From: Candidatus Iainarchaeum sp.
GTDB lineage: Archaea; Iainarchaeota; Iainarchaeia; Iainarchaeales; CSSED10-239
Length of the DNA stretch: 32,000 nt
Direction of reading: 5' to 3'
Assembly (NCBI GenBank): GCA_937968065.1
Contig: CALBUD010000033.1
Coordinates: forward strand, 1-32,000
The position numbers were made by a program, and so were the translations under genes. Of the stretch, positions 15,486-21,400 are shown piece after piece (within the stretch, counting starts at the first letter, position 1; each line of letters starts with the position of its first letter). A model generated the notes under the pieces. That model was not told where the DNA came from. It was given only the letters and a program-made list of their open reading frames with translations, and did no database searches.

Positions 15486-18400
15486 TTATTTAAATTTACT
15501 TGGATTGTGCCATAACTTAATTATAGAATCCTCTATTTTTAAACAAACATTTTCATTATTTATTTGTTCGAAAACATCTTTCATGGTTTTATATGAAATG
15601 TTTGGTGACATGTTATTCATTAACACATTGTATATTTTAAAGTTGTTATCTACTTCATTTAGGATTGAAAACACACTCATGTTTTTAATATTTGTTATTT
15701 GTGGGTTTGAATAGATTGCAAAGTTTGAAGTTGTATCTTTAAGTAAGAATAAATTCTTACCAGAATAACTTCCAACATCTACATTTCCAGTTGCAGTATT
15801 TACAAGCTTACCAGAATAATTTTCATTAAAGTAGATTGGTCTTGAATCAATGAATCTATAGTTTGCCATATTTTCTAATGTAAAAATATATCCTTTCTGT
15901 ATCTCTGCCCAATCATTTACAGTGTATGTTGTTTTAGTATACTCAGGAAGGAAAGGTGCATTTAAAGAATTATTTGTTTGTGCAAACAATGGATTTATTG
16001 GATTAAAGAATAAAGGATTTTTAGAATATTCTTCATCTAAGTCATTTACTTTATCTCCAATCTTTATACTTAAATCATTTCCATTCTTTTTTAAAATAAT
16101 TAAATATTCTCCTGGAGAAGAAACATTTGTGTTTTCTGTATAAGTGTAATTATAATCATTAAAAAGACTTCTTGAAGTTTTATAACTTTTTAAAATATTT
16201 GTATTATATGGTTCATTAGTATTTGAAAACTTCTTTAATTTTGAAACAAATAAATTTGGAGAATCTCCAATAAACACTTCCATGTTTAAATAAAACTCTA
16301 TTTTTTGTGCATTTGTCAAATCATCATACTTAAAAGTTTCTAAGAAATATTCAACACTCATATAATGATTTCCTCCAAGCATTATTAGTGTATCAGGTAT
16401 TACAGAAATTCCTGTAACTTTTGTTTTAATAATTGTTATCTCTCTTAAATGTTTTGGAACCTTTTCAAGAATATCTTTTGCTTGTTTTATGTATGTTTCA
16501 AGTGTCTCTTTTTCATCAAATTCATTACATTCAACACAAAGATCAAGTACAGCATCTGATTTCTTAATACTTTCACCATCTTTATAAAATAATATTTCTC
16601 CAAGTTTTACTTTATCTTGAGTATTTTCTAAAGAATCTGCTTTCTTTTTTAAATAATCATAGAATTGTTCTTGATCACAATAATATTCTTCACAAGAAGT
16701 CTCTGTTATCTTATTTGAATCATATTCAAATAATATTTGATCAAATCCTAAAAGTTCATAATTTTCTTTTCCTGTAACTCCATCTTTTGAAGTTAAGGTA
16801 GGATCATAACAACTTAGATCTAAAGCTTCAGTTGTTACTGGTTTTGGAACACTTCCATCATCACAAACCCCTTGAACAGGTGACTTTCCATCATCACAAA
16901 CTTCTTGTACAGAAACACCTGAAATTGGATTGGTTTCAATTCTTGTATCCACACCAATCAAAGTATGTCCTTGAAGAACTGATTGTTGAGTGTTTGGATT
17001 TATTTGCATAATTGTAAAATTTATTCCTTCTTTTGTATTTTTATCTTTAAAGAAATCATAAATCTCTAATTTATTATTTTCGCGTCTATCATTATCAATA
17101 GTTTCAATTGGTCTTTCAAAACATAATTTAAAATAATGTTTTTTAATAAACTCAATACTTACCTTTAAAGGAGAAGTATAACTTTCATCAAGATAGAAAA
17201 GACCTAAATCTTGTATGTGTGAAGTTTCATTAATTCCATTTATAGGGAAGTCTTTTACCATACCCATAAAACATCTTTGAGCTGTTTCTTCTAAATCAAC
17301 TCTTCTAAATTTATTTTTTGTTAAAGCATCTTCAGGAACTTTAATAAACACAATGTTTCTTCCATCTCTTTGTATTTCTAAATCATATGTTAATTTGACA
17401 GAAGTATCCACAAATAATAATTCATCTGCTGTAAAAATACTATAATTTAAATCTTTTCCTAAAAACTCTTTAATAATCTCCCAGTTATCTCTATTATCTA
17501 AGATAAGCCATTGGAAATTATCTTTAAGTTCCATACCAACATTATGGTAGACTAATGAAGACATACCGTGTGGAGGTTGAAGACCAACTTGCAGCACAAA
17601 CTTTAAGTTAACCTCATCTTCTACATCTATAAGCATTCTTCTAAAAGTTGAAATCACTCCTGCTGCAATTGAATTTTGACCATATTTATTCATGTATGCT
17701 TTTGCAGAAGAAGTATTTTTAATCTCAGGATTTCTTCTTAAAGCTATATCCCATACTTCTATAGGTTTGTTTGTTTGAAGATCTGTTAAATAATCAACCT
17801 TTATAGGTTGTATTCTTCCTTGCATATCTCCAACATTTAAGAAAGAAACACCATCAAAATCAAGTGAAGTTAAATCTAAATAATTAACTTCAACAAGTCT
17901 GTATCCTTGATCAAAACAAGTGTTCATAACTTTTACTAATTGATACTTAGGATCAAAAATATTTGAAAAATCTAATTTTTGTGGAGTTACTTGTATACAT
18001 TTTGAAGGCATAAAACTTAATGGTAAAGTTACATTTACAGGAACCTCTCCAACAAGAGAATAAACATTTTCAGAAGCAAGAGAAGGTTTTGCTGTAACTG
18101 GAACTCTAAAAGTTCCCATTTCTTCTGCACCTGTAACTAAGACTTGTGTGCTTTGATTTGGTTCTAAAGTAAATTCTTTATCTGAAGAGACTACAACTCC
18201 ATAGTTTTGTTCAAGTTTAATATCAACTGCTTCTAGACAATTGTTTGTAACTGTAAATGGTCTTACAGGACAGTTCATACTATTTGTAAAACCCATACCT
18301 CCATAACCACCTTGCATATAAGGATCCATGAAGTTATAATAATTATAATTACTATATTGATTTTGGTATTGTGAAGTTGGATAATTATAAGGATAAACAG

Positions 18401-21400
18401 TTGAAGCTTGTTGTCCAAAATATCCTGTTTGTCCAACTAAGTTTTGTTGTGGGAAGTTATATCCTTGTTGTTGTGTCATATATCCTGGAGCATACTGATA
18501 TTGATTTAATGGATTAAATTGTCTGTTCATGTTATAACTTTGAGCATAATTTACTCCTCCAAAATATCCACCACTCATTTGTTGATTATAAAGAGCAGGA
18601 TTTAAGTTTCTATTAAACTGTCCTAAAGCTCCTTGTCCATAATATTGATCATACATACCCATTCCAGAAAACCAATTACATGCAATAACAGGAACTGGTT
18701 GTTGTGGAATATCTATACATTCTGAATAATTGTTAACTATAATGTTTGTTTTTAAACTTGATTTTATTTCATCAATACCATTCATGTTTCCTTTTAAAGA
18801 ACTAAAGTGAATGGTTGGAGAAGTAACTGAAGAAGTTACTTTATGAGCTTTAAACTTTAATGTTGCTGTTGTTTTTGTGTTTCTTGGCATGCTTGGAATT
18901 ATTATATTTTCTTGTAAGTTTTCAAGAATATATTCTCTATTATTTATAACTAAAGATAAAACACCAGATTCAGTTTTATTTTCCCAATCAACCATTGCAA
19001 TAATATTTCCTAAGTCAACAGCATTAAGATTTGAAGAACATTTATTCTCAATTGTAAAATCAATTGTTTTTTCTTCACTTGCAGTTGTTCTTATAGTTGC
19101 ATCTAAAGGCAATATTTTCAAACAATCAAGAGAATCAAGAGCGTTTCCTAAAACAACTCTAACAGTTACAGGAATATTTATCATCCAAGTTTTATTTAAT
19201 TCATCATTTCTAACTCTTACTTGAACAGTTGTTTTAATTGTTTGTTGTGTATAAAGATTAATTCCTTTTTCAGTTAAGGTTGCAACAAGTTCTACATCTG
19301 CTTGTGAATCTCCATTAATAATGTTTTCTGAAAGGTTTGTGTTTAATGTAACAAACTCATTATTTGTAGTTGTTGAAACTGAAACTATAGATAAAGGAAC
19401 AGAAGTGTTATTTAAAAGACTAAAATTATAAATCTCTCTAACATCTCTTGAAGTATCTAAATTAAGAATTATTTCTTGAGGAACAGGAGTTATAACTTTA
19501 TCATCTATAACAACAGATGTATCATTCATCCTATATTCGTTTTTTGTAACTATAATTCTTAAAGTATCATTTAGATCTGGTGCTGGAAGAATAAATCCAA
19601 ATAATCCTTGAGCATCTGTGTTTCCTGTTGTTATAACATAATCATTTAATAAAACATTAACATTTGCTTCAGGAACAACAGACCCTTGAGAATCTGTAAC
19701 TTTTAAAATAACATCATTTGGAAGAAGAGGAATTATTTTTCTTGGAAACATTTCAACTTGCATTTCTTTTGCTTCTTTAATATCTATTAATATGCTTTTT
19801 GAAAATACTTCTTCTCCATTTGAAATTAAAGATATTTTTACAACATCTGAAACATCATCAATCACTCTAAAACTTAAATCTCCTGAAATAAAATCATTTG
19901 AAGTTAAAGAACCAATTTCAATTTCTGAAAAGTCAGTTCCTGTTAAAAGATTTCCTGAAACTGAATTAATACTGTATTCTTGAAGTCTTACAGAGTTTCC
20001 TGTTGTTATTGAAAGATAAGAATTTGGAGCGTTCTTTCCTTCTAAAATATTAAGATTAAATGAAAGTCTATAATCATTATTTATTTGAGCATTATAATTA
20101 TCAATTATGTTTCTTGTAAGATTTGTTTGTGTGTTTCTAATACTTACACTATAACATAAAAGAGAAGAACATTGGTTTTGAGAACCTATAAATAAAATTG
20201 CTTGTTTTACTTGAGCATACAAAGGTTGTTTTGTTGAATTTGTTAAAGAATTATCAACAGGTGATCTAAAGATTGTTGAATTTTCAAAAAATTCAGCTCT
20301 ATAATTTACAAATTGGTTTTGAAGAGCTGTATCAAGAACAACTATATCTGCTTCAACTAAATAACTTCCTTCCATAGGGTTATTAATAGTTAAATTAAAC
20401 CATTTTGCATTTCTTAAAGTCTTGTTTGAAAAATCAGTTGTTTCTCCAAGACAAGGTGTAAAGGTTTCAGAACCTACAAAACTTGGTTTTGCAAATCTTA
20501 TTTCTTTTATGAAAAGATTATCTTCTAAAACATTATATGTTGTTGTTGAACAAGCAGGGCTTGGAGCATCACCGGTTCTTATGTGTGCAACTATTTTTGA
20601 ATATTTTTTACTTGCATTAACAACAAACTTTGCAGTTACTTGTTGACCTGAAGTTACAGAATTTATTTTTTCTCCTAAAGAATTATAAAAACCTATAAAC
20701 TCAATTGAAGAGGTGCTTGTTGTTCTTGGAAGAACAAATTCTAAATTTTTAATTTCTTCTGCTGAGATTTTATATCTTGGTGTTATTAACTTACTATCAT
20801 AATTATCAATTACAAAATAAACTTCTTTATCAGCTCTTATTTTTATAAAAGTAAAACCTTCTTGGTTTGTGCTTGTTATTTTATCTTCTAAGATTAAATC
20901 ATTAGAAGCATCATATACAAAAACATTTCCTTGATAATTTTCTCCAAAATCTGTTATTAAAGAAATATTAAATGTTCCTTCTCCAATAATCATTTTTATT
21001 TTTTGTTCATTTATTTCTTGTGGAACTATTCTAAATGGATTTGTGTGCTCTGATACAAAGTCTCCTTTAATAGCATCAAGTTTATATGTTTTTTCAGAAT
21101 CTAGATTTGGAATAACAACTTTACCATAAACGTCTGCTGTCATAGTTTTAATAACAATATTTTCTTCAGCATCCCAAAGTCTTACAACAGCAAAATCAAT
21201 TGGTTTAAAGAAAGCATCTTCAACAGTTACAAGTAAACTATTTAGATTTTCACTTGTAAGAGGATGTAGAATAACTTGTCTTACAGTATCTGATATTTTT
21301 AAATTATTTTCTGTTTTTATAATATAATTTTCATTATTAAAAATAACTTTATAAGTAATGTTTTCTTCAACACCGAAAGTTACAAGACCTTCTATGTTTG

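Follow-up and report, generated by a model that had tools for sequence, protein, structure and literature searches.

The window analyzed here, a 32,000-nucleotide stretch of DNA from a DPANN archaeon that is kin of Candidatus Forterrea (Iainarchaeota), encodes six giant proteins, one of which carries in its ectodomain a sequence resembling a yeast prion domain, and this raises the question of what such a tract does at a cell surface. Protein D, the 2,341-amino-acid membrane-anchored surface protein in question, is encoded on the minus strand, like all features described below, at 15486..22511 (ATG at 22511, stop codon at 15486-15488, from the ORF and its translation). Its single N-terminal transmembrane anchor (residues 40 to 62; 22326..22394) is the sole Kyte-Doolittle window above 2.0 in the whole protein and follows a 39-residue segment containing nine K+R. 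The N-terminal half contains Ig-like domains matching the Pfam models CarboxypepD_reg, SpaA, SdrD_B, and bMG3, and full-length orthologs share 33 to 62% identity. With one N-terminal anchor, paired cysteines, and Ig-like folds, the location outside the cell proposed by the first-pass annotation is plausible.

That annotation had described a Q/N/Y/G-dominated, nearly uncharged stretch at 18275-18670, and the stretch is real. It corresponds to residues ~1282 to 1413 of protein D, and its 133 residues comprise 22 Y, 21 Q, 19 G, 18 N, 9 M, 8 F, 7 S, and 7 P, with two D and two R, while K, E, I, H, and C are missing. Both strings quoted at the time, QYQYAPGYMTQQQGYNFPQQ and SQYQNQYSNYNYYNF, were found in it. 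Using two invariant cysteines, C1278 and C1414, as limits, we define the tract as residues 1279 to 1413 (135 residues; 18273..18677), distinguished by composition, pLDDT, PAPA, and log-odds. In the best 100-amino-acid segment of protein D, Q+N+Y+G reached a fraction of 0.64, compared to 0.32 to 0.40 in the other five giant proteins, and the tract is the single extreme outlier among the six. No match to it was found among Pfam models, NCBIfam models, or PDB sequences.

The likeness to Sup35-type domains holds at the level of composition (r = 0.90 between the amino acid compositions of the tract and Sup35N). A re-implementation of PAPA gave 0.179 for the tract against a threshold of 0.05, with Sup35N and Ure2N as controls at 0.100 and 0.117. 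In a crude PLAAC-like log-odds score, with Sup35N plus Ure2N as foreground and the Asn-rich proteins of the window itself as background, the best 60-amino-acid segment of the tract reached +52.8 bits (z = 8.2 versus 9,839 other segments), the runner-up scoring +7.9. Other parts of the earlier description did not hold up: the supposedly repeated elements YxQ, GGY, QQ, and NY are no commoner than in composition-preserving shuffles, internal repeats within the tract were found at neither the protein nor the DNA level, and just one instance of the FUS-type [G/S]Y[G/S] motif is present.

Structure prediction indicates disorder. AlphaFold2 with 8 sequences gave a pLDDT of 22 to 28 for the tract and 84 to 93 for its flanks; with 37 sequences, the values were 33 to 51 and 94 to 98, and the tract was modeled without secondary structure. 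It is thus predicted to be an intrinsically disordered loop. The preceding Ig-like beta-sandwich domain (residues 1125 to 1261; 18729..19139) was modeled as all-beta with pLDDT 90 to 98 and has a Cys pair, C1130 and C1158, 28 residues apart across a tight A'-B turn. The host domain (residues 1262 to 1500; 18012..18728), identified by DSSP and the Cys motif, is an Ig-like (PapD/ASH-type) beta-sandwich about halfway along the ectodomain, with strands A' (1273 to 1276) and B (1417 to 1423) flanking the tract. The two cysteines of the motif C[LIV]x[LIV]...NxC are spaced by 27 to 29 residues in five neighboring or paralogous domains and by 160 in the host domain. The tract therefore stands in place of the A'-B hairpin turn of one Ig-like domain. 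It had been thought to be spliced between two beta-sandwich domains; a beta-sandwich does lie on either side, but the tract sits inside a hairpin of a single domain.

Two nested Cys pairs bracket this insertion. The outer one, Cys1265 in "ECIDI" at the start of the host domain (18717..18719) and Cys1425 in "TNNC" at the end of strand B (18237..18239), is invariant in 37 divergent relatives and is the domain's own strand-A/strand-B pair; in the neighboring domains, C1130 and C1505 are the homologs of Cys1265, and C1158 and C1532 those of Cys1425. The inner pair, Cys1278 (18678..18680; invariant in 8 orthologs) and Cys1414 (18270..18272), lies directly at the loop base and shows strict co-occurrence: of 101 relatives, 50 have both cysteines (49 in place and one with its 5' Cys displaced), 51 lack both, and none has just one (Fisher p = 2.6e-28). 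At least 10 independent joint gains or losses are counted on a tree built from the flanks, and 99 of the 101 tracts contain no further Cys. Assuming that the pairs form disulfide bonds in this organism of an anoxic aquifer, the loop would be closed, and since its ends are held together, its 135 residues would hang as a lasso bearing no tension.

The flanks of the tract were matched by 257 cluster representatives, and 101 divergent relatives, the few named ones being Iainarchaeota (Diapherotrites) or unclassified archaea, carry an insert of 37 to 203 amino acids at the same position. Three distant relatives (P0141, P0143, and P0166) seemingly lack it. Across all 101 family tracts, Tyr is enriched (4.0-fold) and K (0.05-fold), E (0.11-fold), and V/I (0.2-fold) are depleted; in 90% of them, Pro is overrepresented 1.9-fold. 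Aromatic content does not follow an AT-bias proxy (rho = -0.05); Q+N rises with it (rho = 0.50), Gly falls (rho = -0.31), and only 21% of the tracts contain at least 25% Q+N. The family-wide property is thus Tyr richness and lack of charge rather than Q/N richness, and the yeast-prion look of the sequence in the window is best read as mostly an AT-rich genome filling spacer positions, with Gly swapped in elsewhere. PAPA exceeded 0.05 in 76% of the family tracts. The spacing of aromatic residues in the window tract is more even than in shuffles (z = -1.5; 3.5% of shuffles reach it), a weak signal alone, and the same tendency appears in 99 relatives (mean z = -1.18, 90% below 0; Wilcoxon p = 1.8e-15).

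The ends of the tract are conserved, whereas its middle cannot be aligned between family members. The loop entry motif NWFSGMGMY (18651..18677) follows the family consensus [PC].N.G[YW]G.Y with the nearly invariant Gly1283, and the exit-side motif YNYPTSQY (18366..18389) follows YP[YF]sNY..P[FY]Y with the nearly invariant Pro1378; both residues (G159 and P254 in alignment A3 of 37 relatives) are at least 90% conserved. Between orthologs, identity is 54 to 71% in the tract and 56 to 63% over the whole protein, and dN/dS is 0.29 in the tract and 0.20 in the rest of protein D, showing that the tract is under purifying selection. Among 11 strain-level variants, the length variation suggested by the first-pass annotation as a check was not seen, and changes in the tract were only of the Y/F, S/T, N/S, and V/I type, at twice the average substitution level of the protein (8.7% versus 4.1%).

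A weaker Tyr/Asn/Thr-rich insert occupies the same hairpin of the paralogous giant protein F (28798..29118; Cys904 to Cys1010 of the listed ORF). There, the Cys spacing is 106 instead of 28 residues, and the insert contains 16% YFW, 22% QN, and 12% charged residues; it is the second-best log-odds window of the locus and is kept in the L001 ortholog (residues 1156 to 1261). Forterrea-like genomes retain the same cluster of six genes, and the Forterrea ortholog of protein D (61% best-segment tblastn identity over a 701-residue query region) carries the tract. For Candidatus Forterrea multitransposorum, five proteins of more than 1,800 amino acids are reported within one 42-kb region, a role of the cluster in cell-cell interaction is proposed, and the relatives of the source organism are inferred to be host dependent (Probst and Banfield 2018, PMC5905446).

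We give roughly even credence to the reading that the tract is an adhesive or cohesive sticker-and-spacer loop on a cell contact protein, an interpretation borrowing sequence statistics from cytoplasmic eukaryotic domains. Its ~30 evenly spaced aromatic residues would act as stickers and its Q/N/G/S residues as interchangeable polar spacers, which together could make many weak, reversible, Tyr-driven contacts with the same loop on adjacent molecules, with its paralogous counterpart in protein F, or with polymers of a partner cell. Rather than a self-templating amyloid, the loop would then be a patch, cohesive or adhesive, positioned at one set height within the surface coat. Prion-like domains with evenly spaced aromatics and few aliphatic residues are reported to form liquid-like assemblies in preference to solid ones (PMC8638251; bioRxiv 10.1101/2021.01.01.425046), and a bacterial surface protein combining Ig-like folds with disordered domains was found by experiment to phase-separate and glue cells (PMC7482068).

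The alternatives differ in how they account for the same data. An amyloid or prion-like zipper, in which loops of neighboring molecules or of two cells stack as cross-beta, would yield irreversible, self-templating adhesion or matrix, as with Sup35-type domains and fungal and bacterial amyloid adhesins. The PAPA score above both yeast controls and the Sup35N-like composition favor this, as do Pro-free Y/N/Q segments of up to ~27 residues (read from the sequence), such as TSQYQNQYSNYNYYNFMD, which could make steric zippers; moreover, most archaeal candidate prion domains lie in membrane proteins, and high Tyr/Phe content set apart the candidates that bound Congo red and replaced the Sup35 prion domain (bioRxiv 10.1101/2020.07.20.212902). 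However, V and I, the strongest prion promoters in PAPA, are 5-fold depleted in all 101 relatives, Pro is enriched, and the aromatics are evenly spaced without clustering; on balance, the statistics of the sequence point away from amyloid. In addition, a loop whose two ends are fixed to a bulky domain of a giant membrane protein would be hard to stack in register, at 4.8 Å per molecule, for steric reasons, curli-type imperfect repeats are absent from the tract, no nucleator or secretion genes were found in the locus, and a cytoplasmically inherited prion role is impossible for an extracellular loop. We consider the zipper unlikely. Somewhat less unlikely is a specific ligand-binding loop, whose Tyr/Asn/Gln-rich surface would order on binding a defined partner-cell polymer (a glycan, S-layer glycoprotein, or cell wall sugar) through hydrogen bonds and CH-pi stacking. 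Sugar-binding sites typically feature Tyr, Trp, Asn, and Gln, and conservation between orthologs extends beyond composition to sequence. The purifying selection, the entry and exit motifs kept across relatives of ~20% identity, the inferred host dependence of the organism's relatives, and the proposed role of the cluster in cell-cell interaction (PMC5905446) fit as well. Against this stand the variable length and unalignable middle, unusual for a defined binding site, and the lack of any Pfam, NCBIfam, or PDB sequence match. AlphaFold2 could miss a specific fold or ligand site, and the sequence-level conservation with Gly1283 and Pro1378 may mean either; likewise, a disordered aromatic loop that mediates adhesion would fit the ligand-binding as well as the adhesive reading.

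The loop might also be a passively tolerated low-complexity insertion that mediates no interactions and serves as an entropic bristle or spacer, its makeup drifting with base composition. The correlation of Q/N with AT bias, the three relatives seemingly without an insert, and the raised substitution between strains point this way, and AT-rich archaea generally have more predicted prion-like domains (bioRxiv 10.1101/2020.07.20.212902). Yet the universal Tyr enrichment and K/E/V/I depletion independent of base composition, the nonrandom aromatic spacing, the dN/dS value, the Cys covariation at the loop base, and the strain-stable length make this improbable. The first-pass annotation had offered an extensible tyrosine-rich linker that unfolds under load between two domains. 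The tract is indeed long, flexible, Gly/Pro-containing, and located mid-stalk among Ig-like domains; nevertheless, it connects two antiparallel strands that are neighbors within one domain, which puts its ends side by side, and a pull on the stalk would be transmitted past it. With two Cys pairs bracketing it as well, we regard this option as practically ruled out.

Among the closest known counterparts of protein D are the large membrane-anchored proteins of Candidatus Forterrea multitransposorum, which belong to the same gene family and cluster; the keyword-matched passages of PMC5905446 mention the giant proteins in one sentence of text and one figure legend, which do not describe the tract, its topology, or its conservation in the family. 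Yeast Sup35 N and Rnq1 and the archaeal PLAAC/PAPA candidates resemble the tract in Q/N/Y/G richness, scant charge, lack of aliphatics, predicted disorder, length above 100 residues, and PAPA positivity, and such archaeal candidates occur preferentially in membrane proteins and in AT-rich genomes, with Y/F-rich ones testing positive for amyloid (Zajkowski et al., bioRxiv 10.1101/2020.07.20.212902). Unlike the terminal, cytoplasmic yeast modules, the tract is an internal, putatively extracellular loop, Cys-pinned at both ends in an Ig-like domain; it has no oligopeptide repeats, its Q/N richness is not a shared trait of its relatives, and heritable prion behavior is impossible outside the cell. 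With FUS/hnRNPA1-type domains, the family shares universal Tyr enrichment, polar G/S/Q/N spacers, depletion of K/E and aliphatics, and aromatics spaced more evenly than chance (PMC8638251; bioRxiv 10.1101/2021.01.01.425046), and the Gly/Tyr-rich relatives P0044 and P0069 are strikingly FUS-like. The tract differs from these domains in its single [G/S]Y[G/S], its membrane-tethered, closed, presumably extracellular loop, and its lack of RNA-binding partner domains. Curli CsgA, plant glycine-rich cell wall proteins, and resilin are extracellular and Q/N/G/Y-rich as well and form cohesive matrices, but they rely on regular repeats and on dedicated nucleator/secretion genes or peroxidase cross-linking, neither of which was seen at the protein D locus. 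Finally, Brosi_A1236, an anammox surface-layer protein of Candidatus Brocadia sinica to which no homology was detected at the Pfam level, is, like protein D, a large protein combining Ig-like beta-sandwiches with disordered low-complexity domains of ~100 residues (PMC7482068). These bacterial domains are C-terminal Thr/Ser/Gly-rich tandem repeats, in contrast to the Tyr-rich hairpin insert of protein D, and they phase-separate, wet cells, and glue particles (PMC7482068).

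All six large ORFs in the window, which has a G+C content of 27%, lie on the minus strand, and one of them encodes protein D, a polypeptide of 2341 amino acids starting with ATG at position 22511 and ending with a stop codon at 15486 to 15488. A first-pass annotation had described a prion-like domain in this protein. Translation of positions 18275 to 18670 confirmed the charge-poor composition described there, dominated by Q, N, Y, and G: the 133 residues include Y22, Q21, G19, N18, M9, and F8, two D and two R, and no K, E, I, or H, and both strings quoted in the annotation were found in the translation. 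The natural borders of the tract are two cysteines, C1278 and C1414, which place it at residues 1279 to 1413 (18273 to 18677, minus strand). It contains 30% Q+N and 3% charged residues, and the best 100-amino-acid stretch of D reaches a Q+N+Y+G fraction of 0.64, compared to 0.32 to 0.40 in the other five proteins of the window.

In a crude PLAAC-like re-implementation (not PLAAC itself), for which the six Asn-rich proteins of the window themselves served as background, the tract obtained a log-odds score of +52.8 bits (z = 8.2 relative to 9,839 other windows). A re-implementation of PAPA, using the propensity table of the published code, yielded 0.179 (threshold, 0.05), while the controls Sup35N and Ure2N scored 0.100 and 0.117, respectively; FoldIndex was −0.02 to −0.13 in that region. 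The compositional observation thus survives correction for the Asn-rich background of the locus, a check that the first-pass annotation had listed as able to refute it. This does not extend to the proposed repeated YxQ, GGY, QQ, and NY elements, which occur about as frequently as in shuffled sequences. Tandem Repeats Finder detected only a chance match (9 bp × 2.4) at the DNA level, and the self-similarity of the protein did not exceed that of shuffles at any offset. A PDB sequence search with the tract as query gave no match even at an E value of 10, and searches with Pfam and NCBIfam left the tract, the last 927 residues of D, and proteins B and E without any matching model. There is no N-X-S/T sequon among the 18 Asn residues of the tract, which is little informative given an expectation of about 1.6; D in total harbors 37 sequons and 24 cysteines. 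Neither tRNA genes nor Rfam features were found within the window.

Protein D carries a single transmembrane helix (residues 40 to 62) after a 39-residue segment with nine K+R, and Pfam identifies the Ig-like domains CarboxypepD_reg, SpaA, SdrD_B, and bMG3 in its N-terminal half. An N-terminal anchor followed by tandem Ig-like beta-sandwiches is also indicated by all-beta AlphaFold2 models and by Foldseek, which matched only generic tandem Ig-like arrays (ASH/PapD-like ciliary domains, CFA/I pilins, protocadherins, cadherin arrays, and integrins). Seven full-length or nearly full-length orthologs share 33 to 62% identity with D (37 to 62% for those covering 100% of the query), and the named orthologs are labelled "archaeon" or "Candidatus ainarchaeum". 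Furthermore, a genome scan found relatives of D in Candidatus Iainarchaeum MAGs and in the complete genome CP045477 of Candidatus Forterrea multitransposorum, a member of the phylum Iainarchaeota (formerly Diapherotrites) within DPANN; the taxonomy of the family was checked for a handful of named proteins. Two contigs that carry P0005, the ortholog found in Forterrea, have the identical gene order F-E-D-C-B-A (loci L001 and L002; 285 and 664 kb). By homology and by this six-gene neighborhood, D belongs to the giant surface proteins of the Forterrea cluster of Iainarchaeota. The cluster itself has already been noticed: in the passages searched of the respective paper, the Forterrea giant proteins appear in one sentence of the text and one figure legend. 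Forterrea and other DPANN archaea presumably live in attachment to cells of other organisms, and the giant surface proteins are the prime suspects for holding them there (PMC5905446).

Some further features of these proteins lie outside the tract. The cytoplasmic N terminus of D (22395 to 22511, minus strand) contains a duplicated LEKKGI motif (LEKKGINLYKIVDPLEKKGIPTF), many positions of which do not vary among the 8 orthologs, and an ortholog of F has a comparable duplication; the segment could serve the giant proteins as a shared signal for targeting or insertion. At the C termini of A (about 175 to 310), B (about 7676 to 7810), and D (about 15489 to 15620), a Cys is followed after 10 to 13 residues by [FYW][YH]NP, as in "CLKIEDSIIKLWHNP" and "CISYSGSSLKVYYNP", which suggests a common terminal module. 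Protein C ends in six acidic pentapeptide repeats (ETPDD/ETPED/ETSED; about 10648 to 10740, minus strand), a low-complexity tail very unlike the tract of D. Protein E (22719 to 24395, minus strand) has a 559-amino-acid counterpart in the corresponding position of the L001 cluster, and its N terminus, "MFNQKG FNLFTAMIALMLVSITIVF", resembles a type IV pilin (class III) signal peptide. Class III signal peptides were considered for both D and E, and we make no such claim, as a strict fit to the usual archaeal cleavage pattern failed.

AlphaFold2 modeling of D residues 1000 to 1700 with 8 orthologs yielded all-beta flanks (pLDDT 84 to 93) on either side of residues 1279 to 1414, where secondary structure is almost nil and pLDDT falls to 22 to 28. 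With 37 divergent relatives, modeling of residues 1125 to 1500 gave values of 94 to 98 for the flanks and 33 to 51 for the tract. Domains of this kind in A, C, D, and F contain a "C[LIV]x[LIV] ... NxC" cysteine pair spaced by 27 to 29 residues (C1130-C1158 and C1505-C1532 in D, C1146-C1175 in A, C1180-C1207 in C, and C1211-C1239 in F). The domain hosting the tract has the same motifs ("ECIDI" and "TNNC"), with its cysteines, C1265 and C1425, 160 residues apart. According to DSSP, strand A' directly precedes the tract and strand B directly follows it; in the preceding domain of D, a four-residue turn joins the two strands. It follows that the tract interrupts the A'-B hairpin of a single domain and that its two ends must adjoin. 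It had been placed between two beta-sandwich domains, and beta domains do lie on both sides, but the insertion point is within one of them.

An exhaustive profile search with the flanks as query recovered 257 cluster representatives, and the insert could be delimited in 101 of these divergent relatives. The cysteines directly at the tract ends, C1278 and C1414, are invariant in eight orthologs. Across the 101 relatives, both are present in 50 (in one of these, unlike the other 49, the 5' Cys is displaced), both are missing in 51, and a single one is found in none (Fisher p = 2.6e-28), and 99 tracts are free of any further Cys. On a neighbor-joining tree of the flanking domains, this state changes at least 10 times, always jointly. 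The outer pair, C1265 and C1425, is invariant in 37 divergent relatives. The joint occurrence is strong evidence that C1278 and C1414 function together, the simplest form being a putative disulfide, which in combination with the outer pair would give the tract the shape of a closed lasso.

Nearly all of the 150 matches listed are 2,200 to 3,000 amino acids long and match at about residue 1000 to 1550. The insert occupies the same place in all 101 relatives, with a length of 37 to 203 residues (median, 92). Tyr is enriched 4.0-fold in 100% of the inserts, Gly 2.2-fold in 96%, and Pro 1.9-fold in 90%, and K (0.05×), E (0.11×), and V and I (0.2×) are depleted in 100%. The Q+N content varies between 4% and 38% and rises with a proxy of AT bias derived from the rest of the protein (rho 0.50); Gly falls with it (rho −0.31), aromatic content is independent of it (rho −0.05), and D ranks 96th of 101 in AT bias. 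At least 25% Q+N is reached by 21% of the inserts, and 76% pass PAPA, owing to their Tyr. Also, the aromatic residues of the D tract are spaced more evenly than in shuffles (gap-CV z = −1.5), as they are on average in 99 relatives (mean z = −1.18, 90% below zero, Wilcoxon p = 1.8e-15), none of which showed significant clustering. The relatives share an entry motif, [PC].N.G[YW]G.Y, with a nearly invariant Gly, and an exit-side motif, YP[YF]sNY..P[FY]Y, with a nearly invariant Pro. A likeness of [PC].N.G[YW]G to class II viral fusion loops was considered and discarded, the loop being ten times too long.

In close orthologs, the alignable tract shows 54 to 71% identity, compared to 56 to 63% for the whole protein and about 11% expected by chance for this composition, and indels are concentrated in its first third. 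At the strain level, length variation of the tract was not seen: 11 of 11 members of one 90% cluster have 126 residues from the CNW motif to MNCP, in three alleles differing by Y/F, S/T, N/S, and V/I-type changes. Comparison of two alleles gave a dN/dS ratio of 0.29 for the tract and of 0.20 for the rest. For the alleles P0005 and P0012 (L001 versus L005), dS is 0.15 in the tract, about twice the 0.08 of the remaining gene; with only 10 synonymous differences, this may be noise or local recombination. Three distant proteins (P0141, P0143, and P0166) align through both flanks apparently without the hairpin insert (0 to 1 residues by HMM coordinates, whose boundaries are imprecise at this hairpin) and could be natural loop-less controls.

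In protein F, the A'-B hairpin likewise carries an insert, less pronounced and rich in Tyr, Asn, and Thr (28798 to 29118, minus strand; 16% aromatic and 12% charged residues), where the cysteines C904 and C1010 are spaced by 106 residues. The window cuts F (24532 to 32000, minus strand): the frame is open from the listed start at 31827 to base 32000, and the L001 ortholog has 2671 amino acids, beginning with a cytoplasmic segment and transmembrane helix ("LEEKGLPAFAIVASILLLLIF") as in D. The listed ORF of 2431 amino acids is therefore incomplete. The insert is conserved in this ortholog (residues 1156 to 1261 of the gene at 66 to 8081), at a chain distance from the anchor similar to that of residues 1265 to 1425 in D. 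Given this similarity, neighboring molecules (D-F or D-D) may touch laterally at a single level of the coat, although the loop may just as well contact a partner cell.

From this anatomy, we infer how the loop might associate. What the family keeps constant is disorder, purifying selection, numerous evenly spaced Tyr residues, which would act as stickers, and the lack of lysine, glutamate, and aliphatics; the spacers would be interchangeable, Q/N in AT-rich lineages and G/S elsewhere. An Ig-like domain near the midpoint of a membrane-anchored stalk would present the closed loop. Taken with the precedent of the anammox surface protein Brosi_A1236, these sticker-and-spacer features point to a putative multivalent cohesive or adhesive patch. 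It is conceivable, if rather unlikely, that the tract represents a family-wide, selection-maintained extracellular archaeal "prion-like" domain of this type, in which disulfide-closed, Tyr-rich lassos, held at one set level on D and at a comparable chain distance on F, condense with one another or with the envelope of a partner cell into a gel-like contact layer ("molecular Velcro"), either between a DPANN cell and its host or within the surface coat.

Several other roles were weighed against such a patch. The idea of an extensible tyrosine-rich linker, raised in the first-pass annotation, is contradicted by the topology, as a closed lasso with two Cys pairs does not fit it. The Tyr enrichment seen in every relative, the dN/dS values, and the covariation of the cysteines speak against a passive insert. 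Amyloid or prion-like stacking of the loops is less likely than the patch but has some support from the positive PAPA score, the Sup35-like composition, and the finding that archaeal candidate prion domains rich in Y/F tested amyloid-positive (bioRxiv 10.1101/2020.07.20.212902). However, V and I are universally depleted and Pro is enriched in the family, the aromatics are evenly spaced, repeats are absent, and stacking lassos pinned to a protein of 2341 amino acids poses a steric problem. A specific ligand site that would become ordered on binding agrees with the conserved entry and exit motifs but fits poorly with a length range of 37 to 203 residues.

The tract is the sole part of such a giant DPANN surface protein with recognizable physical chemistry. 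Since the lasso is pinned in an Ig-like hairpin with a covarying basal Cys pair, and since Tyr content and spacing are kept in 101 relatives while the spacers, Q/N or Gly, follow base composition, it offers a clean natural system for asking what function a prion-like composition is selected for outside a cell. It also carries a warning that "archaeal prion candidates" of the PLAAC or PAPA type in AT-rich genomes may be Tyr-sticker loops in which Q/N richness is incidental. The gel-layer reading, if true, would mean that condensate-type low-complexity biology also operates on the exterior of archaeal cells and show that Q/N and Gly/Ser spacers are evolutionarily interchangeable according to genome base composition.

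Compared to yeast-type prion domains, the tract has a Q/N-rich, charge-poor stretch of at least 60 residues above its own background and a PAPA score above 0.05 in a disordered region (FoldIndex below 0), but Q/N richness is not conserved among the 101 relatives. Yeast prions are inherited cytoplasmically, whereas the predicted extracellular position of the loop argues against such inheritance. The features of curli-type functional amyloids were not found: the tract lacks imperfect beta-solenoid repeats, and Pfam and NCBIfam revealed no nucleator or secretion genes among the six ORFs of the window. Candidate prion domains are already known from archaeal membrane proteins, at about 0.1% of proteins and more commonly in AT-rich genomes (bioRxiv 10.1101/2020.07.20.212902). 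The suggested likeness to FUS-type domains does not hold at the level of [G/S]Y[G/S] triplets, with 1 copy in the tract versus 0.8 expected from shuffles, unlike some Gly-rich relatives of D with many copies. The even Tyr stickers, polar spacers, and few charges and aliphatics nevertheless give the loop family the sticker-and-spacer architecture of FUS/hnRNPA1-type prion-like domains, in which an even distribution of aromatics and a low number of aliphatics have been associated with assemblies of a liquid- or gel-like and not a solid kind (PMC8638251; bioRxiv 10.1101/2021.01.01.425046). Brosi_A1236, which combines Ig-like folds with disordered domains, phase-separates, wets cells, and glues particles (PMC7482068), and is an experimental extracellular precedent. 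As far as literature searches show, the hairpin-lasso topology with its covarying Cys pair and the retention of the tract by a large protein family are new, as is the proposal that Tyr content and spacing, and not Q/N richness, are probably the selected trait.
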